A stretch of 64,000 nt of DNA. Source: Elusimicrobiota bacterium. GTDB taxonomy: Bacteria; Elusimicrobiota; Elusimicrobia; Elusimicrobiales; UBA9959. Shown piece after piece: positions 12,327-51,896 of this stretch. Where the stretch lies: assembly GCA_029267355.1 (NCBI GenBank), contig JAJUJA010000004.1, positions 1,404 through 65,403 of the forward strand, in the 5' to 3' direction. The notes under the pieces are model-generated. The model did no database searches and was not told the DNA's origin. It saw nothing but the letters and a program-made list of their open reading frames with translations. A program made the translations under genes and the position numbers. Every line of letters starts with the position of its first letter. Position 1 is the stretch's first letter.

Positions 12327-13311
12327 TGTTCTTCTTTACTTTTGTAAAGATTATTCTTCCCTGTGAAGTTTGAAGTATTGACTGCACTATAACTTCCATT
12401 TTTCTTCCTATGCAGTCCCTGCCGTCCTCAACAACCACCATGGTGCCGTCGTCAAGATAGCCGACGCCCTGGCTTTTTTCCTTGCCTTCCTTCATAACGA
12501 ATATCTGCATATCCTCTCCGGGAAGCACTACCGGCTTTAGGGCAGCTGACAGATCATTGACATTCAAAACAGGGACATTTTCAAGCGCGCCGAGCTTATT
12601 TATGTTAAAATCAACGGTTATTATGGAGCATTTCAGCTCCTTGGCTATTTTTACCGTCTTGGAAGAGACATCGGACAGTTCTTTAATATCTCTGTCTATT
12701 ATTTTAAAAGGCAGGGCCTTTGTTTCTCTAAGTCTTGCCAATATATCCAGGCCCCTTCTTCCTCTGGCCTTTTCCATCGGGTCCTGATATTCCGTAAGCT
12801 TATGAAGATGGTCAAGAATAAATCTCGGCACCACCAGAGAGCCTGAGATAAAGCCTGTTTCGCAAATATCCAAAATCCTGCCGTCTATAATGCAGCTTAA
12901 ATCAAGAAGCTTTATTGTCCTGCCTACTTTCTTTCCGAGCTGAGAAATATCCGTATCAAGCTCATCAAGCTCGCTGACTTTTTTAACCCCTATAACCATG
13001 CCGAGTAAAGCCAGCACATATTTGAGTATGAAATTAAATCTGGACCACATAGCGCTGAGAGAGTCATTGTCTATCTGATAAACGGTGTAATCAAACAGTT
13101 TAGCAACTATTATACCCACAGCGGCTCCCATTATGCCTACAATGAGAACCGAAAGTTTGGTGTTTTCAAGCACATATTCGGCGGCGACCATCAGAAGCCC
13201 TATGAATAAGCCGAGCAAAATTCCGTTCAAGTTTTGAGAAATTTGAAAATAGGCGACTATAGGAGTTCCGGCAACGGCCAGTATCCTGAATATCCATATT
13301 ATCATAAGCAC
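12316..13311 (-). CDS. Membrane-anchored PIN/TRAM domain protein (YacL-like)
   Basis: Four N-terminal TM segments, a PIN-like core and a C-terminal TRAM-like beta domain. It sits in the radA-yacL-ispD-ispF order known from Firmicutes. Confidence 0.7.
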   Translation of the reverse strand: MLMIIWIFRILAVAGTPIVAYFQISQNLNGILLGLFIGLLMVAAEYVLENTKLSVLIVGIMGAAVGIIVAKLFDYTVYQIDNDSLSAMWSRFNFILKYVLALLGMVIGVKKVSELDELDTDISQLGKKVGRTIKLLDLSCIIDGRILDICETGFISGSLVVPRFILDHLHKLTEYQDPMEKARGRRGLDILARLRETKALPFKIIDRDIKELSDVSSKTVKIAKELKCSIITVDFNINKLGALENVPVLNVNDLSAALKPVVLPGEDMQIFVMKEGKEKSQGVGYLDDGTMVVVEDGRDCIGRKMEVIVQSILQTSQGRIIFTKVKKNNGK

Positions 13312-17634: not shown

Positions 17635-18723
17635 TCACATTTTATAAATTCTCGGCACTCTGCTCATGATCAAGGTCGTTATCTCATAGCCTATGGTATC
17701 AGCCAGAGAAGCCAGAAAATCAGGCCCTATATATTCTTTTCCGCTTTTGCCCATAAGGACAACTTCATCACCGACCTGAGCTTTTTTAAGGCCGCTTATA
17801 TCGGCCATGAACATATCCATGGTTATATTGCCGACAATAGGACATTTTTGTCCATCGATGAGGACATAACCTCTGTTTGAGAACGCTCTTATATATCCGT
17901 CTCCGTAGCCGGCAGGTATCGTAGCCACACGCATATTTTTAGCGGCCTTGTAAGACTTATTGTAGCTTATAAAAGCGCCTCTTTTAACGTTTTTAATGAA
18001 CACTATTCTGCTTTTCAAAGACATTGCCGGCTTAAACCCTTTTACATATCCATAAGCCGCCCAGCCGCATCTCGCCATATCAAAACGCGCCCGCGGGAAA
18101 TTAAGGGCCCCCGCCGAATTGGCCATATGTCTTTCTATGAACTTCTCATATGGAGCGGTTATCTTTTTAAAAAGGTTCAGCTGCATCAAGGAATAGTCCC
18201 TGTCGCAATCTGCGCTTGAAAAATGGCTGTAAGCCGCCTGAACGCAAACATTCCTGGAGGTTTCCAAAAAAGACATTATGCTTTTGAAAGCGTTTTCGCT
18301 TACGCCTATTCTGTTCATGCCTGTCTCTATTTTTATATGACAATTGATTTTTTTCCCTAGAGACATAGCGGTTTTATCCAGCTCTTTTACTCCCCAGAGG
18401 CTTGAAATCGTGGGCGTGAGATTATGTTCGGCGAAAGCCTGAAAATTTTTCATCGGATAGACGCTGCCCAGAACCAAAACAGGCAATTTTATGCCTTTTT
18501 GCCTTAAAAGAAGACCTTCCTCTACGGAGGAAACGCCAAGCCAGTCGCAAAGCCTGTTTTGCTGGGCGAAAAGAGAAACCTCTTCTATGCCGTGGCCGTA
18601 AGCGTTGGCCTTGACCACGAACATAAGCCTGGACTTGCCAAGGATTTCTTTAAGTTTTTTAAGATTATAAGCCAGCGAATTAAGATCTATCTCCGCCCAT
18701 GTGGGCCTGAATAAATCTTTCAT
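17635..18723 (-). CDS. alr: Alanine racemase
   Basis: The PLP-Lys motif VVKANAYGHG and overall Alr pattern. Confidence 0.9.
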   Translation of the reverse strand: MKDLFRPTWAEIDLNSLAYNLKKLKEILGKSRLMFVVKANAYGHGIEEVSLFAQQNRLCDWLGVSSVEEGLLLRQKGIKLPVLVLGSVYPMKNFQAFAEHNLTPTISSLWGVKELDKTAMSLGKKINCHIKIETGMNRIGVSENAFKSIMSFLETSRNVCVQAAYSHFSSADCDRDYSLMQLNLFKKITAPYEKFIERHMANSAGALNFPRARFDMARCGWAAYGYVKGFKPAMSLKSRIVFIKNVKRGAFISYNKSYKAAKNMRVATIPAGYGDGYIRAFSNRGYVLIDGQKCPIVGNITMDMFMADISGLKKAQVGDEVVLMGKSGKEYIGPDFLASLADTIGYEITTLIMSRVPRIYKM

Positions 18724-21699: not shown

Positions 21700-22452
21700 T
21701 CAATTATACCATATTTTGGGCGAGTTTAAGAGTTTTTTTTCCAAAGCTCTGACGGCGGCAGCCAATTTTTCTTCATTTCCTATATCATGCCAAAGGCCGT
21801 TTTCATACTCAAAACAGGCTATTTCTCCCCCCCTGCCGGCCGTGTCCAGATACAGTTGAGTAAGCGGGAATTTTTCTTCATTGGGGAAAAAGGCGAAAAT
21901 ATCGGGCGAGAGCAGCTGTATGCCGCAAAAAGGCAGAATTTTTTCTATTTTGGCCGTTTTTTTAACTATCTTTTCTCCAGTTTTATCATTAAGCCAGCCG
22001 CAAAGCGAGTTTTTTTCGTCAAAGATGAACTTCCTTGAGGCCGGCCTTTTTTTAACGGCCAGAAGGCCCAGAACCGGTTTCCTGTCAAACTCTTTTCTCA
22101 TAAGATTCAAGTCAAAATCGCAAAGTATATCGCTGTTATAGACAAAGAAACTCTTTTCGCCTTTGAAAAGCTGAGCCGCTTTTTTCAGACCCCCGCCCGT
22201 GTCCAGAAGGTAATCCTCCCTTGAGATATAAAAATCGGCACCGAAATATTTCTTTTCTTTCAAAAAACTTTCAACCTTATCGGCAAGATGCCATGTGTTT
22301 ATGACAAAACTGAAAACCCCCGCTTTTTTAAGATTCTCCACAGCCCTTTCAAGCATTGTCTTTCCGCCTATTTCTATAAGCGGCTTGGGCACAGTATCCG
22401 TTATCGGCCTTAATCTCTCGCCGCGGCCGGCGGCCAGTATCATCGCCTTCAT
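21700..22452 (-). CDS. murU: Sugar-1-phosphate nucleotidyltransferase, MurU-like (N-acetylmuramate-1-P uridylyltransferase candidate)
   Basis: The N-terminus MKAMILAAGRGERLRPITDTVPKPLIEIGGKTMLE closely resembles Pseudomonas MurU. It lies in the same strand block as an AmgK-like kinase. Confidence 0.6.
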   Translation of the reverse strand: MKAMILAAGRGERLRPITDTVPKPLIEIGGKTMLERAVENLKKAGVFSFVINTWHLADKVESFLKEKKYFGADFYISREDYLLDTGGGLKKAAQLFKGEKSFFVYNSDILCDFDLNLMRKEFDRKPVLGLLAVKKRPASRKFIFDEKNSLCGWLNDKTGEKIVKKTAKIEKILPFCGIQLLSPDIFAFFPNEEKFPLTQLYLDTAGRGGEIACFEYENGLWHDIGNEEKLAAAVRALEKKLLNSPKIWYN

Positions 22453-22991
22453 TTCATTATCTCTATCTGTCCTATTGACGGCTGCGGCACAAGGGCGGTT
22501 GAAACGGCGCTGACGCCTTCAGACACATACATACAGGCTATTATAACCACCGCCGAAAGAAGAATCCCTACAGCCAAATTTCCTTTTTGCAGTTCCCGGC
22601 CGGCATGGAGTTTTTCGCGGCTCAATCTGCCGAAAAGCCTCAAGGCGACTGAAATGGTAATTACAGCGGCGGCCATGGTTATGAACAAATGTCCGGCAGA
22701 CATCAGCGCAAGCTTCCATAAGGCGATATTATTCTCGCCGGGCGCCGACATATAAAGCCTGAACATGCTTACCACTGAAGAAATCGCTTTTTGAAGCATT
22801 GAAGAGGCCGAAAAAAGAATGGAAGCCACAAGCACGCCCACAGCGGTATTGCCTTTGGCTATCTCTTCTTCCATATCAAAGTCCGGATTAGCCCTTATGA
22901 ATATGCGGTAAGTAACATATATTACCAGTCCCGACATTAAAACTGCCAGAAGAAACTCAAACACGCTGACTATTATTCTTATGCTGAACAT
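22449..22991 (-). CDS. Tandem DUF350-domain membrane protein
   Basis: Two repeats each carry the DUF350 hallmark (EEIAKGNTAVGVLVA.. and RELQKGNLAVGILLS..). 4-nt overlap with murU. Confidence 0.7.
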   Translation of the reverse strand: MFSIRIIVSVFEFLLAVLMSGLVIYVTYRIFIRANPDFDMEEEIAKGNTAVGVLVASILFSASSMLQKAISSVVSMFRLYMSAPGENNIALWKLALMSAGHLFITMAAAVITISVALRLFGRLSREKLHAGRELQKGNLAVGILLSAVVIIACMYVSEGVSAVSTALVPQPSIGQIEIMK

Positions 22992-23004
22992 AACTCCTCC
23001 TTAA

Positions 23005-24087
23005 TTAAAAAAACGGCTCAATAGCATAACCCTTTGAACCGCCAAGCAGAGCCTTTGTATTGGCTCCAACCTGCCCCGGCATAAGCCAGGCCGGACCGGC
23101 AGGCTCTATGAGGACATATTCCAGTCCTTCATATCTGACGAATAAATCTCCCTTGGCCGGAATCCTTCTTAAACCCATAAGATAATGCCCCGGCACCGAT
23201 ATTCCGACCATTTTCACTCCGCTCCAATTGCCAAGTATTGAAGCAAGCACTCCCGTTTTGGTATCGCAATCTCCCCAGCCGCTTATAACTGCCTTAAGCG
23301 GAGGCAATATGCCGCAGGTATGAAGAGAGCCTTCTTTTGAAGGCGGGATCTTATATTTTACCGCAGTCTGCACCATTGAAACCGCAGCGCCTACGGTATC
23401 CTCCGAAGAATATCGTCTGGCCTTTGATATATTTTGTATAGCCAGGGCCAGCGGCTTAAGCTCATTTATATTCCTTCTCACTATGTTCGGCATATCGCAA
23501 ACCACTATATTGCCTTCTCTTAAAGCCAGGCCGCGCTTGTAAAAAAGAGCCCTGAGCCTGGTATCATATTCCTCGCTGACCCTCTCTGCCGCCTTATCGG
23601 CCTCGCCGCGGCCGCCCTTAGCATATGCTTTTTTCCATTCCTCCTGCAAGGTTTTTTGACGCCACTGTTTAAGGGTCTCATATTCCTCGTCTCTATAGCC
23701 GTAATTTTTAAGATATTCAGCGAGATATTTTTGAGAAACAGAAAAAGAGACAGAAAGTCTGTCTTTGTTGAAATTTATAAATTCATACCTTGCCTTCAAA
23801 AGGCCTGCGCCTGCTGATATTTTTTGGGCAGTTCCGGTCTCCTTTTTATTTTTCAAAACCTCGGCATTGCCTGTTTCTTCGGCTTCATCCTCTTCCCCGG
23901 CATCCTCATCTTCTCCGTCCCGGGCATCTTCTTCCTCTTCGTTTTCATAGTCCCCGCCGTAAAGCAAATCTCCGCCGCAGGCAGGCAAATTTAACTTTTC
24001 CTGCCATTGAAAAGCCAAATAAAAATTCATGATAAAAGACAAAAAGCCGAGAAAAGCGAATGCATATATTTGAGTTGAGTTTTTCAT
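23005..24087 (-). CDS. Membrane-anchored protein with an acidic linker and a transglutaminase-like (Cys-His-Glu) putative peptidase domain
   Basis: N-terminal TM, then a D/E-rich stretch (EEEEDARDGEDEDAGEEDEAEE). The C-terminal region reads GWGDCDTKTGVLASIL .. PGHYLMGL .. YVLIEP, resembling a transglutaminase-core triad. Confidence 0.45.
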   Translation of the reverse strand: MKNSTQIYAFAFLGFLSFIMNFYLAFQWQEKLNLPACGGDLLYGGDYENEEEEDARDGEDEDAGEEDEAEETGNAEVLKNKKETGTAQKISAGAGLLKARYEFINFNKDRLSVSFSVSQKYLAEYLKNYGYRDEEYETLKQWRQKTLQEEWKKAYAKGGRGEADKAAERVSEEYDTRLRALFYKRGLALREGNIVVCDMPNIVRRNINELKPLALAIQNISKARRYSSEDTVGAAVSMVQTAVKYKIPPSKEGSLHTCGILPPLKAVISGWGDCDTKTGVLASILGNWSGVKMVGISVPGHYLMGLRRIPAKGDLFVRYEGLEYVLIEPAGPAWLMPGQVGANTKALLGGSKGYAIEPFF

Positions 24088-24138
24088 TTTTTAAAGTTCA
24101 GAAATTAATGATACAAAAAAACGAATATCCCGTGTATA

Positions 24139-24540
24139 TCAAAGTTCGGCAAATAAAAAGGAAATCAGGGATATATAAGCTATGACAGCGATTATATGTC
24201 TGGGCAAAATGCCGTATGAAAAAATAAAAATGATGCCGGCTATTGATAATGCCGAAAAAAGAACGCGCTTTGCAGCCGGAATGCTGAAAAAAATCTCATC
24301 CCGGCTGAAAATTGAAATCAGCGGCTCTGCGGGCAATTTGTTTATTCTCAGATACAGAGACCTTATAGACCACAGGAAAAATCCTGCAAACAGGGCGCAG
24401 ACAAAGATCAGAAAGGCAAAAAGAATAATTTTGTTCAGAGCAGGCATTTCGCCGGCATTTCTTAAATAAAGCTGAAAACCGTAAACACCGCAAGTCACAG
24501 CAAAGGAAAACTTAAAAAGGCTCCAGGCCCTGCTTTTCAT
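24139..24540 (-). CDS. Four-TM membrane protein, unknown function
   Basis: Hydrophobic profile only. 4-nt overlap with the upstream kinase gene. Confidence 0.55.
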   Translation of the reverse strand: MKSRAWSLFKFSFAVTCGVYGFQLYLRNAGEMPALNKIILFAFLIFVCALFAGFFLWSIRSLYLRINKLPAEPLISIFSRDEIFFSIPAAKRVLFSALSIAGIIFIFSYGILPRHIIAVIAYISLISFLFAEL

Positions 24541-26015
24541 TTTTTTCTCTCTTCTATTTCCCTGTGAGAAAGCTCTACTCTTACTCCCTTAACAGCACGT
24601 AAAGCGGCAGCCATTTTCTCTGCCATAAAAACCGAGCGGTGTCTGCCGCCTGTGCAGCCGAAAGAAACAGAAAGATCCGTGAAATTCCTTGAGAGATAAT
24701 TATCTACGGAAAGCATAACAAGCGAATGCGCATTTTCAAAAAATTTTTCAGCCTGAGGGCTTTGACTAAGATAAGAGGCCACCTGAGGGTCCCTGCCGGT
24801 CATTTCTTTGTACTTCTCCTCTCTGCCGGGATTAGGCAGACATCGGCAATCAAAAACAAAGCCGCCGTTATGTCCGCTGAAATCGTCAGGAATCCCATTC
24901 TTATATGAAAAACTTTTAATCCTTACCGTAAGCCCGAGTTTTTTGGCCTGAAAATTCCTCAAATATGTTGAGGAAACTATCCTTTCAAAAACTTTTGTAA
25001 GCTCCGGAAGTTTTACAGGAAGGCTGGCATTAGACAAAAGCCATTCAATATTTTTTATGACATAAGGCACGCTTTGAAGAAAATGCGTTTTCTTCTCATA
25101 AAAGCCTCTAAGGCCGTACGCTCCCATGGCCTGCATAAGCCTTATATAAACGAAAGGGTAGTAAAAATTAAGGAACTCCTCCCTATCAACAGCCGATTTT
25201 ATCTCCGGCAGAGTCAGATACCAGTCAAGCAGGCGCTCTCTTGCTTCTATGGTCAGGTCCGCCTTGGCATCAAATAAAAGAGAAGCCACATCGTATTGAA
25301 GAGCTCCTTTGCGGCCGCCCTGATAATCTATAAAAAAAACGTCTCCGTTTTTTACCATTATATTTCTTGACTGGAAATCTCTGTAAAGGAAAAAATCGCT
25401 TTTAGCCGAAACCAGCAGATCGGCAAGTACATTATAGTCATTTTCAAGTTTTTGCTCATTGAAGGCTATGCCTGCCAGCTTTACGAAATAATATTTGAAA
25501 TAATTCAGGTCCCACATTATGGACTGTCTGTCAAAAGCGGCTCTCGGATAGCAAAGTTTGAGGTCCAGATCCCTTATGCCGAGGGTCTGAAATCTGGCCA
25601 GCTGAGCCAGCGCCTTTTTGTAAAGCTCAAGGGCCTCTTTGGGAAACGAATCGTCCTTTCTCAATGATATCAGCACATCAAAAAGCGTGCTGTCGCCAAG
25701 ATCAGTCTCAAGATAAACTTTATTGGCCTCATCAAAGGCGTAAATCTCCGGCACAGGCAGTCCGAGAGATTTAAAATGCCTCGAAAAACCGACAAAAGCC
25801 CTGTTTTCAAGTTTATCCGGCCCGCAAACCCCGACGGCAGAAATACCTGGCGAGCTTAATCTGAAAAGTTTCCTGTTTGAGCCGTCAGCTTTCAAATCTG
25901 AAATTCTTGACGGCTCTTTGCGGTAAACGGAGACAAAAAGGGCGGCAAGGTTTTTGCAGTACTTTTCCTTATCGCTATTGTCCATATCAGGCCTGGGAAC
26001 GCTCTTGCTGCTCAA
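24537..26015 (-). CDS. Fusion protein: AmgK/APH-type sugar kinase domain plus RapZ C-terminal domain
   Basis: The N-terminal ~340 aa have an APH-fold catalytic loop LYRDFQSRNIMV and FIDYQGG, as in the AmgK/COG3178 family. The C-terminal ~140 aa align closely with the E. coli RapZ C-domain (FDCRCLPNP..MTGRD.., GCTGGRHRSVFMAEKMA). Confidence 0.75.
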   Translation of the reverse strand: MSSKSVPRPDMDNSDKEKYCKNLAALFVSVYRKEPSRISDLKADGSNRKLFRLSSPGISAVGVCGPDKLENRAFVGFSRHFKSLGLPVPEIYAFDEANKVYLETDLGDSTLFDVLISLRKDDSFPKEALELYKKALAQLARFQTLGIRDLDLKLCYPRAAFDRQSIMWDLNYFKYYFVKLAGIAFNEQKLENDYNVLADLLVSAKSDFFLYRDFQSRNIMVKNGDVFFIDYQGGRKGALQYDVASLLFDAKADLTIEARERLLDWYLTLPEIKSAVDREEFLNFYYPFVYIRLMQAMGAYGLRGFYEKKTHFLQSVPYVIKNIEWLLSNASLPVKLPELTKVFERIVSSTYLRNFQAKKLGLTVRIKSFSYKNGIPDDFSGHNGGFVFDCRCLPNPGREEKYKEMTGRDPQVASYLSQSPQAEKFFENAHSLVMLSVDNYLSRNFTDLSVSFGCTGGRHRSVFMAEKMAAALRAVKGVRVELSHREIEERKK

Positions 26016-27966
26016 TTTGAGCGCCTATGCTTTTAAGAAAAGCGTTGATATCCGCTTCCCTGCCCAAAAACTGCCTGGCCTGCTCATTTTCATCAACTGA
26101 ACCGCCTTTTGAGAGTATGCAGTCAATGTATCTTTTGCCGGTCTCAGGGTTGAGTATTCCTTCTTTCTCAAAAACGGAAAACACGTCAGCCGCTATGACC
26201 TCGCTCCACAAATAGCTGTAATAGCCGGCCTGATATCCGCCCATAAGATGGCCGAAGCTGGCCTGAGGATGAGTGCCGGGCGTCATAGGTATGAAGAAAA
26301 TTTTCTTCATAAGCTTTTCATAGAGAGCGGTAGTGTCCGCCTTTGATTTTGTATGGTATTTTATGTCCAGTATGCTGAAAAAAAGCTGCCTGAGATAAAA
26401 AAGGCCGCTGTCCATATTTTTGCTTTCCATGAGCTTGTTTATTATTTCATCAGGCAATTTTTCACCTGTCTTGTAATGCGAAGAAATTTTCTTTAGCGCC
26501 TGAGGATAATAGGCCCAGTTCTCAAGCATTTTTGAAGGCACCTCAACAAAGTCCATGCTCGTATTTGTGCCTGAGAATCTGCCGTATTCGGATCTTGTGA
26601 ATATATTATGAGTTACATGGCCGAATTCATGAAAAAGAGTGACAACTTCGTCAAACTTTAAAAGAGAAGGCGAGTCAGGTCCGGCAGGCGTAAAATTTGA
26701 AACTATGGCCGCAGCAGGCAGCTGATAAACGCCGCCTTCTATTCTTCTGCCTTTCCTTATGCCGAAACAGGCCGCGTGCTTATATTTGCCCTCCCTGGGG
26801 AAAAGGTCAAAATAAAAATAGGCAAAAGTTTTACCGGAAATGTCCTTGACCTCGTAAGTCCTTACATCATTATGCCACTTATCAAGAGCGGCCGGCTCAA
26901 ATTTCACCGAAAATACCGCTCCGAAAGTCTCAAACATGCCGTTTATGACGGTTTCAAGCGGGAAATACTCTTTGATCTTTTCATGGTCTATTGAGTATTT
27001 CTCCTTTTTGAGAAAATTATTGTAAAAGCGCCATTCCCAGTTATGCATCGTTTTTTCATCAAGCCCCGAGAATTTCTTCTTGATCTTTATCCTTTCTTTC
27101 AGCTCTTTTTTGCCTTTTTTTATTACGGCTTTGTGCAGTTTCTCCAGAAAAGCCGATATATTATCGGCGCTTTTGGCCATTCTGTCGGCAGCGGCATAGT
27201 CTGCAAAGGTCTTATAGCCGAGCATTTTCGCTATCTTTGCCCTTAAAGCTATGGCTTTTTCCATCAGTTCGGTGTTTTTCTGGGCGCAGCGGTTATTGAA
27301 CAGGAATTCCATTTTTTTCCTTGTAGCGGCATTGGAGCAATTATCCATAAGAGGTATATAGTCCGGATAGTTGACGGTTACAATGTACTTGCCGGAAGGG
27401 CTCTTTTTAAGCCTGGCCTTATAATCCTCGCCCATTCCTTCAAGCTCGGCATCGTCAAATTCGCCGTAATCCTCAACTTCTCTGAGATTTTTTGAAAATT
27501 CCAGCTCAAGGTTGACCAGCTCTTTCATCAGGGCCTTGAGCTTCTCTCTCTTTTTCTTCTCAAGTCCGAGTCCGTTTTGCTTAAATTCAAAAAGAATCTT
27601 TTCAAGAAGGCGCTTCTCTGTTTCGTTTATATTTTCTCCAAGCCCGGCATACTCGCTAAGAGCGTTGAAAATGTCTTCTCTGGTATAAATATCTATAGAA
27701 TACTGGCTTATTTTCAGTTCAAGCTCCTGGGCAGCTTTCCTGTTCTGGGGATTATCCGAAACATAGGCCATAAAAATCGGTATATTTACATAATCGCTGA
27801 AATCGCTTAAAGCGCCTTCAAAAGCGGCTACGGTATTATGAAAATTTCTTTTTTCCTTAGGATAGGACGCAATCACTGAAAGACGGCTTTCCAAAGTTTT
27901 TATAGCCGTATCGGCCACAGAGTTTATATATTCCGGAGTAAGGTTGAAAACAGGCGCTTGTTCCAT
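25987..27966 (-). CDS. M3-family zinc oligopeptidase (thimet/oligopeptidase A-like), cytoplasmic
   Basis: HEXXH as LFHEFGHVTHN and an M3A-like length. No signal peptide. 29-nt overlap with the downstream kinase gene. Confidence 0.85.
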   Translation of the reverse strand: MEQAPVFNLTPEYINSVADTAIKTLESRLSVIASYPKEKRNFHNTVAAFEGALSDFSDYVNIPIFMAYVSDNPQNRKAAQELELKISQYSIDIYTREDIFNALSEYAGLGENINETEKRLLEKILFEFKQNGLGLEKKKREKLKALMKELVNLELEFSKNLREVEDYGEFDDAELEGMGEDYKARLKKSPSGKYIVTVNYPDYIPLMDNCSNAATRKKMEFLFNNRCAQKNTELMEKAIALRAKIAKMLGYKTFADYAAADRMAKSADNISAFLEKLHKAVIKKGKKELKERIKIKKKFSGLDEKTMHNWEWRFYNNFLKKEKYSIDHEKIKEYFPLETVINGMFETFGAVFSVKFEPAALDKWHNDVRTYEVKDISGKTFAYFYFDLFPREGKYKHAACFGIRKGRRIEGGVYQLPAAAIVSNFTPAGPDSPSLLKFDEVVTLFHEFGHVTHNIFTRSEYGRFSGTNTSMDFVEVPSKMLENWAYYPQALKKISSHYKTGEKLPDEIINKLMESKNMDSGLFYLRQLFFSILDIKYHTKSKADTTALYEKLMKKIFFIPMTPGTHPQASFGHLMGGYQAGYYSYLWSEVIAADVFSVFEKEGILNPETGKRYIDCILSKGGSVDENEQARQFLGREADINAFLKSIGAQIEQQERSQA

Positions 27967-28066: not shown

Positions 28067-28852
28067 ATGAGAGAATACGACATTGCTCTTTCCTGCCTGA
28101 GAAAAAGCGGCGAGATAATAAAAAAGCATTTTTTGAAAGTGGGCTATAAACTCAAGGGAAGAGCGAATCCTGTAACACTGGCCGATATAAAATCCCAGGA
28201 TTTGATAGTCAGAACCATAAAGAAAAACTTCCCTGACCATTCCATAATCGCAGAAGAAAGCGGCCTGACAAGAAACCATAAAGAAAAAGTCTGGATACTG
28301 GACCCGCTGGACGGCACAGTAAACTATGCGCACGGCTATCCGCATTGCGCCGTATCTCTGGCATATGTGTCAAATAATATGCCTATTATCGGCTTTATTT
28401 ACAATCCGATACAAGAAGAGCTTTTTTATGCCGTAAAAGGCAGAGGCGCCTTTTTAAACTCAAAGAGAATAAAAGTGTCATCAAACAAATCTCTGACTAA
28501 CTCTCTTCTGGCCACAGGTTTTGCCTATGACAGAGCGCAAAAAGCCGAATTTTACTGCTCCTTCTACGCAGATTTTATGAAGATTTCCCATGATATAAGG
28601 CGGGCGGGAGCTGCCTCTCTTGATATGGCATGGACAGCCTGCGGCAGGCTGGACGGATATTGGGAATTTAATCTCAAGCCCTGGGATGTAGCGGCCGGCA
28701 TATTAATAGCCTGTGAAGCCGGCGGAAAAGTAACCGACTTTAAAGGAATTGATACAGTCAATTTGCCTGTTTTGCAGTGGGGCAAACAAACTCTCTGCTC
28801 CAACAAGCACATACATAAAGAGATGCTTTCTCTGATAAAAAGGAAAATATGA
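28067..28852 (+). CDS. suhB: Inositol monophosphatase family protein
   Basis: WILDPLDGTVNY, AEES.. and WDVAAG motifs. Confidence 0.85.
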   Translation: MREYDIALSCLRKSGEIIKKHFLKVGYKLKGRANPVTLADIKSQDLIVRTIKKNFPDHSIIAEESGLTRNHKEKVWILDPLDGTVNYAHGYPHCAVSLAYVSNNMPIIGFIYNPIQEELFYAVKGRGAFLNSKRIKVSSNKSLTNSLLATGFAYDRAQKAEFYCSFYADFMKISHDIRRAGAASLDMAWTACGRLDGYWEFNLKPWDVAAGILIACEAGGKVTDFKGIDTVNLPVLQWGKQTLCSNKHIHKEMLSLIKRKI

Positions 28853-30234
28853 AAAAAGAAAATATAATCTTATGGCTGCTGGCGGCGCTTACTCCTGTTT
28901 CTTTGATATACTATTTCTCCCCTAATTCAAACCATTACCTTGCTTGGACTGCTTTCGTCCCGCTGTGGTACGCCGTCTTAAGGCTCCCCTCAATGCTTTC
29001 CGCTTTTTCGGCCGCCTTTGTATGCTTCTACGCCGCATATTTTTTCTCTCTTGACTGGATGAGAGGCCTCTTCGGCTGGCAAGCCTGGTTTTTTTACGCC
29101 ATATTTTCATTTTGGCCGATTTTACACGCTCTGGTTCTAAGAAAGTTATGGGAAAAGGCGGTAAAATCATTTCAAATATGGCTTATGGCTTTCTCTCTTT
29201 CGGCTTTATATGCAGGCCTGGAATATTTCAGGTCAGAACTATGGCCCTTGAACTGCCCGTGGCTGGGGCTGGGTTATGCTCAATTTCCAAACCCTCACAT
29301 CTATCAAAGTTTAAGCATTTGGGGCGTATTCGGACTGACATTTTTCGTAATATTCTTCAACATATCAATACTGATAGCAATATTAAAAAGGCATTTTTCA
29401 ACTGCTGCTTTTTCAATACTTATCATGCTGTCTCTATTCTTGTACGGACATAAACGCCTTGAGATAAATCCGCAAGGCGCCCCCGTCAAAGCTCTTCTTG
29501 TACAGGATGAAACTTATTCTCTTGAAAAACTTTTGTCAATGTCAAAAACAAGAAAAGATGAAGAATTGATAATCTGGCCGGAAAACTCCTTTTATCTCAA
29601 AAGCGGCGAAAAGACTGAGGACAAATTAAGGCAAATACAATCTGCCTTCAAAAACAGAAATTTTTATGCACTGATCCCTATAGGGGTCAAAGAGAAGGAA
29701 AACGGCAGGATTAAAAGAGAAAATTATGCCGTATTCTTTGATCTCAAAACGGGCGGAAAACAAATCTATGAGAAAATGCATCCTGTGCCCTTTGTTGAAA
29801 CAGGCCTAAAAAAAGGGCCCTGTCCTTCGCCTTTAGATTTTAAAGGCAGGAAAATAGGAGTACAAATCTGCTATGACCTGAATTTTGAAAACGGCTCGCG
29901 AATCCTGGCCGGCAAAGGCGCCGAAATTATCCTTGCGCCGACAAACGACCCGATAGAATGGACTGCTAAACAGCAAAGACAGCATGCGGATATGTCAGCC
30001 GCAAGGGCTGTTGAAAACGGGCTATGGATACTGCGTCCGGCGACCTCGGGCATTTCGCAAGTAATAGATGACAGAGGCAGGATAATACGGGAGACTGCCT
30101 CCGGGGAAAGCCTTGCCTTGAGCGGGCAGGCTGAAATGAAAACTTCAGACGCTTTTTATACAAAATACGGCTGGATAATTCCCAAACTTTTTCTGCTTGT
30201 CTCCGCGCTGACTTTAATTGCTGTTTTCATCTGA
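28849..30234 (+). CDS. lnt: Apolipoprotein N-acyltransferase
   Basis: N-terminal polytopic region plus a CN-hydrolase domain with E (IIWPENS), K (YEKMHPVPF) and C (VQICYD). ATGA overlap with suhB. Confidence 0.85.
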   Translation: MKKENIILWLLAALTPVSLIYYFSPNSNHYLAWTAFVPLWYAVLRLPSMLSAFSAAFVCFYAAYFFSLDWMRGLFGWQAWFFYAIFSFWPILHALVLRKLWEKAVKSFQIWLMAFSLSALYAGLEYFRSELWPLNCPWLGLGYAQFPNPHIYQSLSIWGVFGLTFFVIFFNISILIAILKRHFSTAAFSILIMLSLFLYGHKRLEINPQGAPVKALLVQDETYSLEKLLSMSKTRKDEELIIWPENSFYLKSGEKTEDKLRQIQSAFKNRNFYALIPIGVKEKENGRIKRENYAVFFDLKTGGKQIYEKMHPVPFVETGLKKGPCPSPLDFKGRKIGVQICYDLNFENGSRILAGKGAEIILAPTNDPIEWTAKQQRQHADMSAARAVENGLWILRPATSGISQVIDDRGRIIRETASGESLALSGQAEMKTSDAFYTKYGWIIPKLFLLVSALTLIAVFI

Positions 30235-31211: not shown

Positions 31212-31364
31212 AAAAGCCGGACTATTCCCGGTTAAACGGCTTTCCCCTTAGGTCCTATTTTCTTATAGGCTGAAAAAAATAATTATAAATACCTTTTGAA
31301 CCTTATATATCCCTTCCGGATTGACTAAAATTTAATCATGCAAGATAAAATGAACGGAGGATTA

Positions 31365-32789
31365 ATGAAAAAAGCGCTGGTTATAGCTGCAGTTTTACTC
31401 TCCTGCTTTTCACAAATTAAAGCGAGCGAATTCAATCTTGAGTCTATGAATGCCAAAGACATTATGGCCGCAGATTCTCAAACAAAAGGCATCTTTGATT
31501 TCATAAAACCGGGCAAGGAAGAGCCTATGCCTGTAAAGGAATGGACGGTCATAGTCTTTATGAACGCCAAAAATGACCTTTCCGAAAGCTCTTTGTTCGG
31601 GCTTGTCGGCAAATGGGCCGAAAAGGATATAGATGAAATGAAAAAAGTCGGCACCACGGATAAAGTCAATGTGGTAGTTGAGCACGGCTCAAAAGGCAAA
31701 GGCGCAAAAAGAATGCTTATTCTTAAAAAATCTTCAGGCCTTGGCGGTTTTTTCGCCTCGGGAGAGAAGGTTTATCTCCAGGATCCGAAAGCCGATATGG
31801 GCGATTATAAAAGAGTAATAGATTTCGTCAAATGGTCAAAACAGAATTTCCCCGCCAAGAAATATATGCTTATAATATGGAATCACGGCCTCGGCTGGAT
31901 AGACCCCAATATGCAGGAACATACAGCCGGCACAGGCACTTCCGACAAAGGCATAGCTTTTGACGATGAAACCAAAAATTACATAAGAACAAAACAGCTC
32001 GGGGAAATACTTAAGGCCTCAGGATATATAGATGTATTTGCCATGAACGCCTGCCTTATGCAGATGGCTGAAGTCGCCTACGAAATGAAAGGATATACCG
32101 GCCTTATAGTCGGCTCCGAAGAAACAATGCTGGCTCAGGGCTTTGATTATGAAAAACTTCTTAATTTCATTAACGGCAATCCGAATTTCTCAAAAAAACA
32201 GATAAGCGACTTTTTCATGAACTGGTATAAACAGTTTTATGCACAGGGAATGAGCGTTGGACCTCTTACAATGCCTTTAGACAATATCGCCTCAACGCTT
32301 TCAACCATAGAGCCTGCGGCTCTGGCCGAATTGCCGCAATATCTCAATTATTTCGCCGATCAGGTTATGAAAAACGATGAGAAAGAAGCCGTCAAAGCGG
32401 CTATCCCTGCCGTAATAAGATTTACAAGCATAGCTGACCCGGCCAAAGACAAAAAGAAGCTTATAGCTCCCTATGTAGATCTTTACGATTTCGCCAGGAT
32501 AGTCGGCGAAAACGCTTCCAATGCCAACACCAGACAAGCCGCCGAGTATCTGATGGGCTTCGTAAAAAACAAGCTTGTCATATCCTCAGTGGGCATAAAC
32601 AGGGATGCTGAAAACAATTATGACTATACTAAGGTCGGCGGCGTTGCCATAAATATGACAATGAAAATAAAGGAAGTTCCGCCTCAGCTGGCCCTGATAT
32701 ATGAAACAAAGTATCAGGACTTAACTCTCTCTAAAGACTCAATGTGGGACGAGTTCATAACCTGGACCGATTCAGTCTGGTCTAAATAA
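31365..32789 (+). CDS. Secreted clostripain-family (C11, clan CD) cysteine peptidase
   Basis: Signal peptide MKKALVIAAVLLSCFSQIKA. His motif IWNHGLGW and Cys motif FAMNACLMQ. The start is trimmed to ATG 31365 after GGAGG. Confidence 0.8.
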   Translation: MKKALVIAAVLLSCFSQIKASEFNLESMNAKDIMAADSQTKGIFDFIKPGKEEPMPVKEWTVIVFMNAKNDLSESSLFGLVGKWAEKDIDEMKKVGTTDKVNVVVEHGSKGKGAKRMLILKKSSGLGGFFASGEKVYLQDPKADMGDYKRVIDFVKWSKQNFPAKKYMLIIWNHGLGWIDPNMQEHTAGTGTSDKGIAFDDETKNYIRTKQLGEILKASGYIDVFAMNACLMQMAEVAYEMKGYTGLIVGSEETMLAQGFDYEKLLNFINGNPNFSKKQISDFFMNWYKQFYAQGMSVGPLTMPLDNIASTLSTIEPAALAELPQYLNYFADQVMKNDEKEAVKAAIPAVIRFTSIADPAKDKKKLIAPYVDLYDFARIVGENASNANTRQAAEYLMGFVKNKLVISSVGINRDAENNYDYTKVGGVAINMTMKIKEVPPQLALIYETKYQDLTLSKDSMWDEFITWTDSVWSK

Positions 32790-33754: not shown

Positions 33755-34438
33755 ATGAAAAAACTTATCGCAGCAATTATCTTAAGCGCCGCCTTTTCAA
33801 CGGTTTCAGCCCAGTTTGAAAGCGTATCTTTGGAAAGAATAAGAGAAACAGAAATTCCAGTCTCGTCCGAAACAGGTTTTGAAGCCGACAAGGATTTTAA
33901 TTCTTTCTTTTATGTTGACAGAAAAGGAGAAATTCCGGCAAAAGCGCTAGAAAAAGCTTTGGATTTTTACAAAAACAATCAGCAGAGGATATCAAATAAA
34001 AGATTTATAGCCATAGCCGATTTCACTCAGCATTCTTCAAACAAGAGACTGTATATCGTGAATATGGAAAACGGGCAGGTGAAAAAATACCTTGCAGCTC
34101 ACGGCAAAGGTTCAGACGCTAATCATGACGGCTATGCCGGCAGATTTTCCAATGAGCCCAACAGCAATGCCACATCGCTTGGATTTTATTTAACAGCAGA
34201 AACCTATCAGGGCAAGCACGGCTATTCTTTAAGGCTGGACGGGCTTGAAAATTCAAATTCCAATGCTAGAGACAGGGACATAGTTTTTCACGGCGCAGAC
34301 TATGTGGTAAATAATGGCGGGAAGATTGGAAGAAGTCTCGGCTGCCCGGCCGTTGAAAACGCCCTGGCGAGAGAAGTCATAGATATGATAAAGGGCGGCG
34401 CTTTATATCTGGCCTGGCATGAAAATTTCTCTAAATAA
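33755..34438 (+). CDS. Secreted L,D-transpeptidase catalytic-domain family protein (YkuD_2-like)
   Basis: Signal peptide. VFHGADYV..GRSLGCPAV catalytic His/Cys pattern. AGGAGG SD. Confidence 0.75.
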   Translation: MKKLIAAIILSAAFSTVSAQFESVSLERIRETEIPVSSETGFEADKDFNSFFYVDRKGEIPAKALEKALDFYKNNQQRISNKRFIAIADFTQHSSNKRLYIVNMENGQVKKYLAAHGKGSDANHDGYAGRFSNEPNSNATSLGFYLTAETYQGKHGYSLRLDGLENSNSNARDRDIVFHGADYVVNNGGKIGRSLGCPAVENALAREVIDMIKGGALYLAWHENFSK

Positions 34439-34470: not shown

Positions 34471-35262
34471 ATGGCAGACAATGATTTTGTCTTTGCCGCG
34501 CAGGAAAAACTGCCGCCGGCAAAAATAATGGCGCAGGCATTAGCTCAAAGTCAGGGCATGATATTCTATGAAGCAATGGCCATAGTTGTAAAAAATTACG
34601 GTTTTCTCGGCTTCAATCTCTCTAAAGAAAAGTCCAAAGCTCTTATTGGTGCCTGCCTGGCCTGCGATATAAAGGCCGTCTCAATGCCTTCTGAAAGTAT
34701 GCCGAAGCTGGCCCCGGCCTTGGAAATAAAAAAAGCCGATTTTTCAGGGCAATATCTGATTTATGAAAATCAGGGCCTTCAATTGAAGGCGGAACTAGAA
34801 AAATTAAAAGTAATCGCCTATGCTCCAATTTCCAGAGAAACAATCAAGGTCATAAAGGAAAAGCAGGGGCCGGGAGCCGGCGAAAAGGCCATGCGTCTTG
34901 GCATAATGATGGCCACAGGACTGCCTCTGGGACTGGGCAAAAGCAAGGAAGTTTCAAGGGAAATACATCAAAGCGAAACCTTGCTTTATCTGGATATGAT
35001 ATTTGACGAAGAGCTTAGACTGAGAATAAATTCGGATAATTTTGATTTTTCCTGCCTTAAAGAACAGAAGGGCTACTCATCGCATACAAACTTTAAGAAT
35101 CTCTGCCTTAAACTGGCTGAAACTTCACCAAAAGCGTGGAAAAACAGCGCCCTTTTTGATCTACTTGATGGCGCCATGGCGCCGTCCTTCAAATATGAAA
35201 CGCTTTCAGACCTTGAGAAAGAGGAAAAAAGGCTGATTCTGGCTCAGATGAAAAACTTCTGA
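34471..35262 (+). CDS. Hypothetical cytoplasmic protein
   Basis: 263-aa ORF with no recognisable motif and no obvious SD. It contains one Gly-rich hydrophobic patch (MRLGIMMATGLPLGLG). Confidence 0.5.
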   Translation: MADNDFVFAAQEKLPPAKIMAQALAQSQGMIFYEAMAIVVKNYGFLGFNLSKEKSKALIGACLACDIKAVSMPSESMPKLAPALEIKKADFSGQYLIYENQGLQLKAELEKLKVIAYAPISRETIKVIKEKQGPGAGEKAMRLGIMMATGLPLGLGKSKEVSREIHQSETLLYLDMIFDEELRLRINSDNFDFSCLKEQKGYSSHTNFKNLCLKLAETSPKAWKNSALFDLLDGAMAPSFKYETLSDLEKEEKRLILAQMKNF

Positions 35263-35386
35263 AAACGGCCAAAATCCTTATCAAAAATGCATATAGGCCC
35301 TTTGTCCTCTATTTTAGCAGGCCGCATCAACCCTTGACATGTCAAGCATATTGATACATACTATTCTTGTGCCCTTTGGAGGCCTT

Positions 35387-36211
35387 ATGAAAAACGCAAT
35401 TATCTCCCTCATATTATGGCTCGCAGTCCAGCCTTTATTTTCTCAGGATTTCGGTTCTTTTTCCATTCCCGACAACCTCAATCTCCCCGCTCCTGTTATG
35501 GACATAGACAAGAACGCGCCTAAAGCGGCTGAAATTCCCTGCTATATGTCAAAGTCCGGCTGTTCAACGGTAAGCGGCTTTTACATCATAAAGAAATGGG
35601 TTCTAAAATACGGGGGCGACTGCCCTGAAATAACTTCAGGCAGAGGCATACTTGAGGCCTGTAAGGATATTAAGGCCAATTACCCCGGCTCGCATCCAAC
35701 CTCTGAAAGAGACGCAGTTTGCGATGCGGTGCACGATAAATTGCAGCCGAACTGGATGCATACAAGGGCTTCCATAGAAATGAGCCGTTCCATATGCAAA
35801 TCCCAAAAAAGCTTCGGCTGGTTTGAAGACAGAATAGAAATAGAGTTTGAAAAATCCGGAAGGATTTCCTCCGACGGAGAGATAGTCAGGGTAACGGCAA
35901 AGAAAGAAGCCGGCAACGGCGATTATAAATCATACAAAGGCTCGGCGCAAAATATCTTCAATATGGATATAGAAGTGACATGCTCCAGAAACGGCAATGA
36001 ATGGAAAAATGACACTCTTTCCATAAGGATAGATAAGCCTTATGCATCCTCTCAAAGCGGCAGCTTCAGCTTCTCCGTCGGGCCTTCAGTGGCGAAATTT
36101 TCAGGCGGCTATACTCAGGGGGTAACACATACCTATCCATACGGCGTATGGCAGAAGCTTAACATAAAAGGCGTATTCTGCGGCAGCGACATAGATCAGA
36201 AAGATAAATAA
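35387..36211 (+). CDS. Hypothetical secreted Cys-containing protein
   Basis: The start is trimmed to ATG 35387 (GGAGG SD). Signal peptide MKNAIISLILWLAVQPLFSQ. 10 Cys residues in the mature part; no recognisable family. Confidence 0.6.
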   Translation: MKNAIISLILWLAVQPLFSQDFGSFSIPDNLNLPAPVMDIDKNAPKAAEIPCYMSKSGCSTVSGFYIIKKWVLKYGGDCPEITSGRGILEACKDIKANYPGSHPTSERDAVCDAVHDKLQPNWMHTRASIEMSRSICKSQKSFGWFEDRIEIEFEKSGRISSDGEIVRVTAKKEAGNGDYKSYKGSAQNIFNMDIEVTCSRNGNEWKNDTLSIRIDKPYASSQSGSFSFSVGPSVAKFSGGYTQGVTHTYPYGVWQKLNIKGVFCGSDIDQKDK

Positions 36212-51761: not shown

Positions 51762-51896
51762 TTCTCCTCTCGAGAAAATGAACCCCAAGGGAAAACCGCG
51801 CCTCCCTCGAGGAACAATCTAAAGGTAGACCGGGCTTAGGAACTTCCATCACCGTTGCGGGGCAGCGTCCGATTTTCACGGACTTCCTTCCTTAAG
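51762..51896 (-). promoter_or_regulatory. Cobalamin (B12) riboswitch with an SD-sequestering expression platform
   Basis: The minus strand reads CUUAAGGAAGGAAGUCCGUGAAAAUCGGACGCUGCCCCGCAACGGUGAUGGAAGUUCCUAAGCCCGGUCUACCUUUAG. This matches the conserved GGAAG.CGGUGAAAAUCCG.CGC.G.CCCGC.AC.GU core and a B12-box-like AGCCCGG..ACC. Downstream, UUCCUCGAG can pair with CUCGAGAGGAG (the SD). Confidence 0.8.

Follow-up and report, generated by a model that had tools for sequence, protein, structure and literature searches.

Does a single bacterial polypeptide join an amino-sugar kinase of the AmgK type to RapZ's C-terminal domain (RapZ-C), and what function could such a combination serve? AmgK is the anomeric MurNAc/GlcNAc kinase of Pseudomonas putida (PP_0405, EC 2.7.1.221), and MurU (EC 2.7.7.99) is its partner in AmgK/MurU systems. 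A preliminary description of the DNA analysed here, a 64-kb window, had proposed such a fusion, which our analysis confirms, and an interpretation of it, which our analysis partly supports. The gene and its upstream neighbour are placed as follows:

24537-25985, minus strand: fusion gene, 482 aa from ATG (ORF list, translation, database twin)
24537-26015, minus strand: longest ORF of the fusion gene, 492 aa from the TTG at 26015
25987-27966, minus strand: upstream gene for an M3 oligopeptidase (Pfam PF01432, E 1e-137), given as context only

The fusion gene is real and consists of a single, uninterrupted ORF. The preliminary description had given the ORF as 24537-26015 and had named no strand; these coordinates are exact for the longest ORF, the strand is minus, and the start is likely to be the ATG at 25985. 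A plus-strand reading of the interval was rejected because its translation is riddled with stops, while the motifs LYRDFQSRNIMV, FIDYQGG, FDCRCLPNP, MTGRD and GCTGGRHRSV were all found in the minus-strand translation. The ATG at 25985 is backed by homologues, including a database twin (P0001) of 482 aa, and lies one base past the stop codon of the peptidase gene (TGA, one base, ATG). Both the homologue lengths and the context of the start site point to it as the likely true start. The TTG at 26015, which falls within the 3' end of the peptidase gene, was rejected in its favor. At the other end, the stop codon of the fusion gene overlaps the start of the next ORF as ATGA. The adjacency of the peptidase and fusion genes is retained in close relatives only. 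The locus is present in three sequencing runs only, all of bioreactor-metagenome DNA and none of RNA.

The possibility that an assembly error or frameshift joined two separate genes can be given a negligible probability. We found no point in its favor, and a two-domain protein of ~480 aa with the same architecture recurs, with a conserved linker, in hundreds of independent assemblies, in isolates and across phyla, and therefore cannot reasonably be attributed to a frameshift in this one. The presence of both domains in one frame, as initially described, is thereby upheld.

The same comparison indicates that the fusion is a large, unstudied family that is not peculiar to this genome. The architecture of an APH domain followed by RapZ_C was found in >350 full-length homologues among the matches listed. 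Clustered at 50% identity, its carriers make up at least 150 groups; they span at least six phyla, and their taxa include Elusimicrobiota, Acidobacteriota, Gemmatimonadota, Ignavibacteriales and, within the Bacteroidota, Prevotella, Phocaeicola, Tannerella, Chitinophagaceae and Muribaculaceae. Cultured Prevotella, Phocaeicola, Alloprevotella and Paludibacter carry it as well, and a single 90% cluster comprises 3,494 sequences. Family members are about 470-500 aa long, and their linker region is conserved. An abundant Tannerellaceae-like protein (P0584) has 476 aa. A novelty specific to the Elusimicrobia was rejected, since a representative search and a genome scan both revealed a wide spread, and the rarity implied by the preliminary description was wrong, the architecture being already common. 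Its statement that no protein of this architecture has been characterized stands for the searchable literature, where we found neither a link between AmgK and RapZ, YvcJ or YhbJ nor an experiment on any member of the APH-RapZ_C fusion family. In RefSeq and UniRef, the sequences appear as "phosphotransferase", "RapZ C-terminal domain-containing protein" or, wrongly, "RNase adapter RapZ".

The N-terminal part of the protein comprises the following features:

24966-25985, minus strand: kinase domain of the APH fold, AmgK-like (residues 1-340 in 482-aa numbering)
25356-25385, minus strand: catalytic-loop motif YRDFQSRNIM, counterpart to the HxD....N loop found in APH and protein kinases
25314-25331, minus strand: metal-binding motif IDYQGG, the DFG equivalent, aligning with VIDFQDA of 3csv

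Based on its nearest curated family and its nearest solved structure, we confirm this domain as a kinase of the AmgK-type APH fold. Pfam APH (PF01636) was matched above its gathering threshold at 25212-25811 (ORF residues 69-268; E 9.5e-12, 45.6 bits vs a cutoff of 23.2), with the catalytic D203 and N208 and the metal-binding D220 in place, and the AmgK models of NCBIfam were the sole kinase families to match. The structure 3csv was retrieved by the PDB sequence search (E 8e-18) and is also the closest PDB fold to the kinase domain (TM 0.78); it is itself an AmgK-family kinase, scoring 251 bits on the NCBIfam AmgK model. The two share the G-loop, the catalytic loop, in which YRDFQSRNIM aligns with FVHRDFHAQNLL of 3csv, and the DFG-like motif. 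Across 35 diverse family members, R202, D203, Q205 and N208, as well as D220 and Q222, are invariant (35/35 in each case). The AmgK equivalog cutoffs were not reached (NF045698, 58.1 vs 500 bits; NF045759, 53.4 vs 550 bits), and identity to 3csv is ~22%, so that the substrate specificity of AmgK is not transferable to this kinase. The full-length AF2 model (pLDDT 90, pTM 0.70) consists of two well-folded domains and a low-confidence linker, and the pTM and the disordered linker leave the arrangement of the domains uncertain.

Beyond this linker (about residues 341-350), the C-terminal part contains:

24552-24929, minus strand: RapZ C-terminal domain PF22740 (Pfam, PDB matches, AF2 model)
24822-24854, minus strand: FDCRCLPNPGR (aligned to E. 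coli RapZ; family conservation)
24633-24659, minus strand: pocket loop GCTGGRHRS of the phosphate/metabolite pocket (alignment and family conservation)

The assignment of this domain rests on several lines of evidence. ORF residues 363-488 matched model positions 2-121 of the 121 in PF22740 (E 1.6e-36, 125.5 bits vs a cutoff of 27), and PDB chains of the E. coli RapZ C-domain matched the fusion protein with E 4e-21. A domain-only AF2 model (pLDDT 90, pTM 0.84) superimposes on the E. coli RapZ-CTD structure 5o5s with TM 0.90, an rmsd of 2.1 Å and 38% identity, and Foldseek returned no significant fold for it besides RapZ. Together with the kinase matches (PF01636, the AmgK models, PDB), this bears out the domain composition first proposed. 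The loop GCTGGRHRS corresponds to C247-T248-G249-G250-K251-H252-R253-S254 of E. coli RapZ, and its C, T, G, G, H, R and S are kept in 33 to 35 of 35 members across phyla. What the residues of the RapZ pocket and the essential C247 do has been described previously (PMC5737377, PMC9841335). Five of the six residues formed by this pocket and C247 (T248, G249, H252, R253 and C247) have near-invariant equivalents in the family, while the sixth, H190, is replaced by Gly-Arg, NPG-R standing in the fusion protein where E. coli RapZ has NPH(190)-W. In FDCRCLPNPGR, the F-D pair corresponds to F181/D182 of the RapZ CTD dimer interface, for which F181A and D182A data exist (PMC5737377), and the R to R184; all three are likewise near-invariant. 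A second Cys (FDCR), found in 33/35 members, is specific to the fusion family.

The isolated RapZ-CTD binds GlcN6P (PMC7073468), while YvcJ binds UDP-GlcNAc and has no RNA tail (PMC7525490). Since the replaced H190 is a pocket residue essential in E. coli RapZ, the ligand of the fused domain may differ from GlcN6P, and "GlcN6P sensing" by this domain is an extrapolation from E. coli.

Would the fusion protein instead act on RNA, as RapZ does? In that case, it would be a true RapZ-like RNase adaptor, in which the C-domain binds a regulatory sRNA and hands it over to an RNase while the kinase domain does the sensing. The protein analyzed here has K/R counterparts of K170, R184, K194 and R196 and a tail ending in RKK, and the RapZ pocket also touches the RNA backbone (PMC9841335). 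Across the family, however, the basic tail is not conserved, the segment past the conserved His being short and non-basic (1.9 K/R vs 2.0 D/E). H190, R211 and R238 are lost. The RapZ equivalog NF003828 was not reached (115.3 bits vs a cutoff of 244) and was matched only at model positions 152-278 of 278, the N-terminal NTPase part with Walker A/B missing. Tblastn detected no P-loop RapZ N-domain in the 64-kb window, which is nearly the whole 68-kb contig, and none of the candidate RNA families, GlmY and GlmZ included, reached the Rfam threshold in the window. Even B. subtilis YvcJ is without evidence of RNA binding (PMC7525490), and the conserved coupling of the fusion gene is to MurU rather than to RNA-metabolism genes. 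We thus regard an RNase adaptor as highly improbable.

This coupling is seen in the gene string downstream of the fusion gene:

24139-24540, minus strand: membrane ORF in the insert, 133 aa
23005-24087, minus strand: ORF in the insert, 360 aa, with no Pfam or NCBIfam family match
22449-22991, minus strand: DUF350 gene in the insert (Pfam/NCBIfam scans)
22449-24540, minus strand: the insert as a whole, three lineage-specific genes between the kinase and MurU genes (Pfam and NCBIfam scans)
21700-22452, minus strand: MurU-like sugar-1-phosphate nucleotidyltransferase, the partner gene (NCBIfam and PDB matches)

In the window, the MurU-like gene lies 2.1 kb downstream of the fusion gene in the same string. 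A similar insert is present in the closest relative (L001) and missing in L002-L006, where both genes abut. MurU (NF045761) is the top NCBIfam family of the partner by ~70 bits, with a cutoff that was not reached (153.8 vs 250 bits), and its top PDB matches are the MurU structures of P. aeruginosa (8hhd, E 8.5e-27) and P. putida (4y7t). In 61 of 80 other species-level loci from at least six phyla, the next gene after the fusion gene is MurU-like and on the same strand (<150 bp away in 56, <800 bp in 5 more); of the 76 loci with sufficient flanking sequence, 14 have no such gene nearby. Triple fusions (APH-RapZ_C-NTP_transferase) are seen in six proteins. The pairs from Tannerella, Phocaeicola, Acidobacteriaceae and Bdellovibrionales show the same NCBIfam AmgK/MurU pattern, the AmgK models again being the only kinase families matched and the scores again lying under the equivalog cutoffs. 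ORF clustering of the 80 loci revealed MurU as the only conserved neighbor; others, such as transporters, MurQ, AnmK, NagZ or MupP, were rejected. The coupling of the kinase to MurU-like genes, which are adjacent in most relatives and sometimes fused, strongly supports the link to AmgK/MurU salvage that the preliminary description had suggested.

An alternative, to which we assign a low but appreciable probability, is that the pair activates another sugar, for instance one used in LPS, capsule or protein glycosylation, with no relation to peptidoglycan salvage. Both enzymes score well under the AmgK and MurU equivalog cutoffs, and APH-fold kinases and small NTP-transferases are diverse in substrate, as judged from the range of matches. 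On the other hand, AmgK and MurU clearly lead the matches of the two partners in all phyla tested, and the pair lies outside glycan-synthesis clusters and has no further conserved neighbors. RapZ-C is tied to GlcN6P and UDP-GlcNAc in both characterized relatives (PMC7073468, PMC7525490), and the published, homology-based AmgK/MurU bypass of Bacteroidetes most likely means these genes (PMC5790795, PMC8054146).

Considering the above, we find it moderately probable that the protein is the kinase of an AmgK/MurU-type salvage pair, with a RapZ-C module for the binding of a sugar phosphate or a nucleotide sugar. The architecture, the family and its breadth, the coupling to MurU and the conservation of the pocket are observed, and the sugar substrate, the C-domain ligand and the ligand's effect on the kinase are inferred in the following scheme. 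The N-terminal APH-fold domain would phosphorylate an N-acetyl-amino sugar, most likely MurNAc and/or GlcNAc, at C1 in an ATP-dependent reaction, and the MurU-like enzyme would convert the sugar-1-phosphate to the UDP-sugar for peptidoglycan synthesis. The RapZ-C module, which keeps the dimer strand and phosphate/metabolite pocket of RapZ and not its RNA-binding tail, most likely serves to dimerize the enzyme and has an amino-sugar phosphate or a nucleotide sugar as its ligand, candidates being GlcN6P, GlcNAc-6P/MurNAc-6P and UDP-GlcNAc/UDP-MurNAc. Binding of this ligand would adjust salvage to the precursor pool.

The same pocket could be catalytic instead of serving as a sensor, which we consider improbable. 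RapZ-C would then use its Cys for phosphatase or phosphotransfer chemistry on a sugar 6-phosphate, in a MupP-like step that would free the sugar of MurNAc-6P or GlcNAc-6P for the adjacent 1-kinase, and the single protein would shift the phosphate from C6 to C1. The loop reads C-X5-R-S (CTGGRHRS), lies between a beta-strand and a helix and is as invariant as the catalytic residues of the kinase, and the fusion-specific second Cys (FDCR, 33/35) would fit such chemistry. C247S inactivates RapZ, its -SH "may fulfil a specialised catalytic function", and the density in GlcN6P crystals resembles a chemically transformed product (PMC9841335); NTPase and phosphatase activities of YvcJ have also been cited (PMC7525490). 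However, Foldseek detected no similarity to PTP, LMW-PTP or ArsC, the CX5R likeness being a local motif only, and phosphatase activity is not known to have been assigned to the CTD. A PTP/ArsC-like fold for the loop was rejected, as the domain-only model gave RapZ as its sole significant neighbor. MurNAc enters Bacteroidetes unphosphorylated via MurT (PMC5790795), so that a 6-phosphatase is not obviously needed there.

A broader hypothesis, which we also hold to be unlikely, is that RapZ-C represents an ancient module for handling amino-sugar phosphates that was joined to two unrelated kinase folds, P-loop (RapZ/YvcJ) and APH (AmgK-like). In its stronger form, no less doubtful, the invariant Cys-X5-Arg-Ser loop would be a catalytic site for phosphotransfer or phosphatase action, and the fusion would turn MurNAc-6P or GlcNAc-6P into the 1-phosphate within a single polypeptide. 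If the ancient-module hypothesis were true, the ancestral job of RapZ-C would be small-molecule chemistry or binding beside a kinase rather than RNA presentation, and the sRNA function seen in enterobacteria would have been acquired late.

RapZ-C is known to bind GlcN6P and to depend on Cys247, and structural work on RapZ has hinted that chemistry may take place in its pocket. The family described here joins this pocket to a putative amino-sugar 1-kinase that is coupled or fused to MurU, without sRNA machinery in the window, and thus offers a simple enzymatic system for asking what RapZ-C binds and does. Among the Bacteroidota, it occurs in abundant groups associated with humans (Prevotella, Phocaeicola, Tannerella, Muribaculaceae), where the AmgK/MurU bypass matters for MurNAc auxotrophy, for susceptibility to fosfomycin and for tools that label peptidoglycan. 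The link between an AmgK-like kinase and RapZ-C is new with respect to the searchable literature, while the sequences were already present in RefSeq and UniRef under generic names, among which "RNase adapter RapZ" is a misnomer for the many members that lack the N-domain and score under the model cutoff.

Compared to the AmgK/MurU systems, the fusion shares the APH fold, the G-loop G-x-S-x-R-x-Y/F-x-R, the RDF-x-x-x-N loop and the IDFQ metal loop, as well as the operon with a MurU-like nucleotidyltransferase and the top curated-family and PDB matches of both partners. It differs from AmgK in that its kinase is only ~22% identical to the AmgK-family structure and scores ~ten times under the equivalog cutoffs, and in its extra 140-aa RapZ-C domain, which the proteobacterial AmgK (about 340 aa, 38-39 kDa) lacks. 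With RapZ and YvcJ, it has in common the C-domain fold (TM 0.90, 2.1 Å, 35-38% identity), the pocket loop GCTGGxHRS with the essential Cys and the F-D residues of the dimer strand. In contrast, their P-loop NTPase N-domain is swapped for an unrelated kinase fold, H190 is changed to Gly-Arg, conservation does not extend to the basic RNA-binding tail, the window contains no GlmY or GlmZ match, and the genomic partner is MurU instead of rpoN/ptsN or glmR/whiA.

The closest experimental counterpart may be found in Tannerella forsythia, for which, along with other Bacteroidetes, an AmgK/MurU bypass has been reported (PMC5790795, PMC8054146). In E. coli, the T. forsythia pair "Tf-KU", which is used for MurNAc-probe labelling, yields UDP-MurNAc from MurNAc (PMC10941766, PMC13041923). 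The searchable literature, which does not extend to the primary reports, yielded no mention of a RapZ-C domain in T. forsythia AmgK. In Tannerella sp. and Tannerellaceae MAGs, precisely the same fusion precedes a MurU-like gene, and the experimentally used "AmgK/MurU" of T. forsythia may therefore well be of the fusion type.

A single open reading frame at 24537-26015 joins an AmgK-like kinase of the APH fold to a RapZ C-terminal domain (RapZ-C), as the preliminary description had correctly read from the sequence. Pfam matched both APH (PF01636, residues 69-268, E 9.5e-12) and RapZ_C (PF22740, residues 363-488, E 1.6e-36, full model length) in it, in the numbering of the 492-aa product. The ORF list and translation place this ORF on the minus strand, where all motifs quoted in that description were found; a plus-strand reading was rejected because of the many stops in its translation. 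The mechanical ORF (492 aa) begins at a TTG that still belongs to the upstream M3 oligopeptidase gene, within its 3' end. Homologues instead back the ATG at 25985, where the database twin of the protein (P0001) and nearly all relatives begin; the product is then 482 aa long. One base separates the oligopeptidase stop from this start (...CAG GCC TGA T ATG GAC...), and at its other end the fusion gene shares an ATGA with the next ORF, its stop overlapping that ORF's start. The genes concerned are as follows.

25987-27966, minus strand: M3 oligopeptidase, translationally coupled to the fusion gene
24537-26015, minus strand: fusion gene
22449-24540, minus strand: three-gene insert (a 133-aa membrane protein; a 360-aa ORF with an acidic low-complexity stretch; a DUF350 protein overlapping the MurU start by 4 bp)
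21700-22452, minus strand: MurU-like nucleotidyltransferase, 250 aa, with NCBIfam and PDB matches

The NCBIfam scan of the fusion protein matched only three families, namely RapZ (NF003828, C-terminal part, model positions 152-278 only, 115 bits against a cutoff of 244) and, with the kinase part, AmgK NF045698 and NF045759 (58 and 53 bits against cutoffs of 500 and 550). AlphaFold, run on the full length with 40 homologues, gave a model (mean pLDDT 90.2, pTM 0.70) whose sole disordered stretch was the interdomain linker, residues 347-349. The model's top PDB fold match was 3csv (TM 0.78 on target), a structural-genomics "aminoglycoside phosphotransferase" from Silicibacter, followed by other small-molecule APH-fold kinases, with the C-terminal part matched by RapZ. 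The 3csv sequence, as read from the printed alignment, scored 251 bits on the AmgK model, far ahead of any other family, which makes the nearest kinase of known structure a member of the AmgK family. The G-loop, the catalytic loop (RDFxxxN) and the metal loop (IDFQ) are common to both in the alignment.

In the first protein search, each of the 120 full-length relatives listed carried both Pfam domains, and all those bearing an organism name were Elusimicrobiota MAGs, the best named ones being 76-78% identical to the window protein, which puts the window organism in this phylum; the locus itself was found in only three sequencing runs, all bioreactor metagenomes. When 1.84 billion cluster representatives were searched with a profile, the best 150 (50%-identity clusters) all exceeded 430 bits and most spanned both domains, most representatives being only 35-50% identical to the window protein. 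Named members include Paludibacteraceae, Paludibacter sp. 221, Porphyromonadaceae, Muribaculaceae, Chitinophagales, Tannerella and Tannerellaceae, and one 90% cluster of 3,494 sequences comprises Prevotella, including P. jejuni. A genome scan with one genome per GTDB species gave at least 600 candidate stretches (598 of 600 confirmed). The best 80 of these belong to Elusimicrobia, many Acidobacteriota (Terriglobales), many Bacteroidota (among them Phocaeicola plebeius DSM 17135, Alloprevotella rava DSM 22548, Bacteroides sp. 519, Tannerella sp., Chitinophagaceae and Sphingobacteriales), Gemmatimonadota and Ignavibacteriales, with one MAG each of Eremiobacteraceae, Opitutaceae and Bdellovibrionales. 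The architecture, whose rarity the preliminary description implied, defines a widespread family of at least six phyla and at least 150 50%-identity clusters, already catalogued in databases and not peculiar to the window. A frameshift or assembly error joining two genes does not explain an architecture that recurs in so many relatives, and the chance that the fusion is an artefact is negligible.

The database names of these proteins are "phosphotransferase", "aminoglycoside/choline kinase family phosphotransferase", "RapZ C-terminal domain-containing protein" and "RNase adapter RapZ", and many fusion proteins and fragments are called "RNase adapter RapZ" or "RNase adaptor protein for sRNA GlmZ degradation". 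The name "RNase adapter RapZ" is unjustified because the P-loop N-domain is missing and the score is below the RapZ cutoff, and judged by their domains this naming looks like systematic over-annotation. One variant from Paludibacteraceae (P0268/P0277, 718 aa; MCQ2199802.1) carries an N-terminal 3'-5' exonuclease domain (PF01612) before APH and RapZ_C; what purpose this combination would serve is not evident, and two genes may have been merged in gene calling.

The top NCBIfam match of the partner is MurU (153.8 bits against a cutoff of 250; next family 87 bits), and in the PDB it comes closest to two MurU structures, 8hhd of P. aeruginosa (E 8.5e-27, full length) and 4y7t of P. putida. Three same-strand ORFs separate it from the fusion gene in the window, an insert splitting in this lineage a kinase-MurU pair that is otherwise adjacent; the 360-aa ORF had no Pfam or NCBIfam match. 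The closest relative's locus (L001) has a comparable but not identical insert, and relatives farther away within Elusimicrobia have the two genes overlapping or abutting. Among 80 species loci (the best of at least 600 candidates; distances measured between tblastn hits), a MurU-like gene lies directly downstream on the same strand at <150 bp in 56 and at <800 bp in 5, and nearby, upstream and on the opposite strand, in one; 14 have none in the >1 kb of downstream flank available, and in 4 the flank is too short to judge. Clustering of all ORFs from these loci gave no other conserved neighbour. In six representative proteins of 714-816 aa (P0200, P0207, P0228, P0238, P0266, P0184) all three domains are fused, in the order APH-RapZ_C-NTP_transferase with RapZ_C in the middle. 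These triple fusions fall into at least four sequence clusters of the family, so that the third domain may have been joined on more than one occasion. The NCBIfam pattern of the window genes recurs in the pairs of Tannerella sp., Phocaeicola plebeius, an Acidobacteriaceae MAG and a Bdellovibrionales MAG. Together, the adjacency counts, triple fusions and equal patterns support that the functional unit, [AmgK-like kinase + RapZ-C] with [MurU-like], is conserved across phyla. The AmgK/MurU pathway, proposed in the preliminary description, is well supported by the partner's place downstream in 61 of the 80 loci. That the pair acts on a different sugar would accord with its scores below the family cutoffs, and is unlikely beside the MurU and AmgK matches that lead all others.

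Modelled alone (pLDDT 90.1, pTM 0.84), the C-domain matched the E. coli RapZ-CTD crystal structure 5o5s (TM 0.90, rmsd 2.1 Å, 38% identity), and a PDB search with it returned nothing significant besides RapZ. The RapZ-CTD has a sulphate/malonate pocket (H190, T248, G249, H252, R253), a nearby essential C247 at which even Ser is not tolerated, basic residues including K170 on the path of the RNA, a dimer strand (F181/D182) and a basic C-terminal tail (PMC5737377, PMC9841335), and it binds GlcN6P on its own (PMC7073468). Over 35 fusion-family sequences from several phyla, the loop G-C-T-G-G-x-H-R-S-V and the motif F-D-C-R (F181, D182, R184) are kept in 33-35, and the K170 equivalent is K or R in 30. 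The H190 equivalent is Gly followed by a conserved Arg (NPGR), those of R211 and R238 are lost, and the tail past the invariant His has about 9 residues with equal acidic and basic counts. Judging from this alignment, the RNA-specific features of RapZ are not maintained, a parallel to B. subtilis YvcJ, a UDP-GlcNAc-binding protein with NTPase and phosphatase activities and no RNA tail (PMC7525490). Within the 64-kb window there was no second RapZ-like sequence, no P-loop RapZ N-domain and no Rfam match to GlmY, GlmZ or the glmS ribozyme. A genuine RNA adaptor, for which the basic residue at K170 would speak, is very improbable against these losses.

The pocket is as invariant over the 35 sequences as the kinase catalytic residues, which argues that it has an essential job in the fusion protein. 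A second conserved Cys, C380 in the 482-aa numbering (24846-24848, minus strand), lies in FDCR of 33 of the 35 members and is peculiar to the fusion family, its counterpart in E. coli RapZ being Val183; with the invariant pocket-loop C444 it could form a redox or catalytic pair. We consider a catalytic, Cys-dependent role of RapZ-C improbable.

We are confident of the architecture and pathway context as proposed. The kinase domain would phosphorylate MurNAc and/or GlcNAc at C1, which its family and partner make its probable substrates, and the MurU-like enzyme would make the UDP-sugar for peptidoglycan synthesis. The conserved RapZ-C module would dimerise the enzyme and, by binding a phosphorylated amino sugar or nucleotide sugar, tie salvage to the pool of precursors; its role as a regulatory sensor is put forward tentatively. 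The overall reading, a salvage kinase with a RapZ-C sensor, is on balance somewhat favoured. Such an "anabolic recycling" bypass has been described for Pseudomonas and stated for T. forsythia and other Bacteroidetes (PMC5790795, PMC8054146, PMC13046382).

Peptidases and wall-related genes are abundant in the window, and a TonB-dependent receptor gene with an AdoCbl riboswitch directly upstream suggests BtuB-like B12 uptake under riboswitch control.

7529-8527, minus strand: papain-family C1 peptidase
17635-18723: alanine racemase, nearby
28849-30234: Lnt, nearby
31338-32789, plus strand: clostripain C11 peptidase
33755-34438, plus strand: YkuD-type L,D-transpeptidase
40213-43566, minus strand: B12-dependent methionine synthase MetH, 1117 aa
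49950-51788, minus strand: TonB-dependent receptor
51780-51913, minus strand: AdoCbl (B12) riboswitch RF01482 (Rfam 54.1 bits, gathering score 50)

The ORFs at 4589-6349 (plus), 12316-13311 (minus), 54418-55533 (minus) and 34471-36211 (plus), of 586, 331, 371, 263 and 290 aa, had no Pfam match at E <= 1e-5 (E <= 1e-3 for those of 263 and 290 aa).

No paper naming AmgK along with RapZ, YvcJ, YhbJ or the Pfam accessions was found in the searchable literature, nor any study dedicated to the family, which databases do list. The window pair would work like AmgK/MurU, yet it falls below both equivalog thresholds. With RapZ the protein shares a bona fide C-domain, but the lack of a P-loop domain and a score under the cutoff mean that it is no RapZ. 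The T. forsythia AmgK/MurU pair has been used in E. coli to convert MurNAc probes to UDP-MurNAc (PMC10941766, PMC13041923), and Tannerella MAGs carry exactly the same kinase-RapZ-C fusion followed by MurU; judging by these MAGs, AmgK function has likely been demonstrated already for a protein built in this way, its extra domain going unremarked. The value of the family lies in what it reveals about RapZ-C: that this domain is paired with two kinase folds unrelated to each other suggests that its ancestral role concerned small molecules, a role for which the fusion family offers a simple test system.
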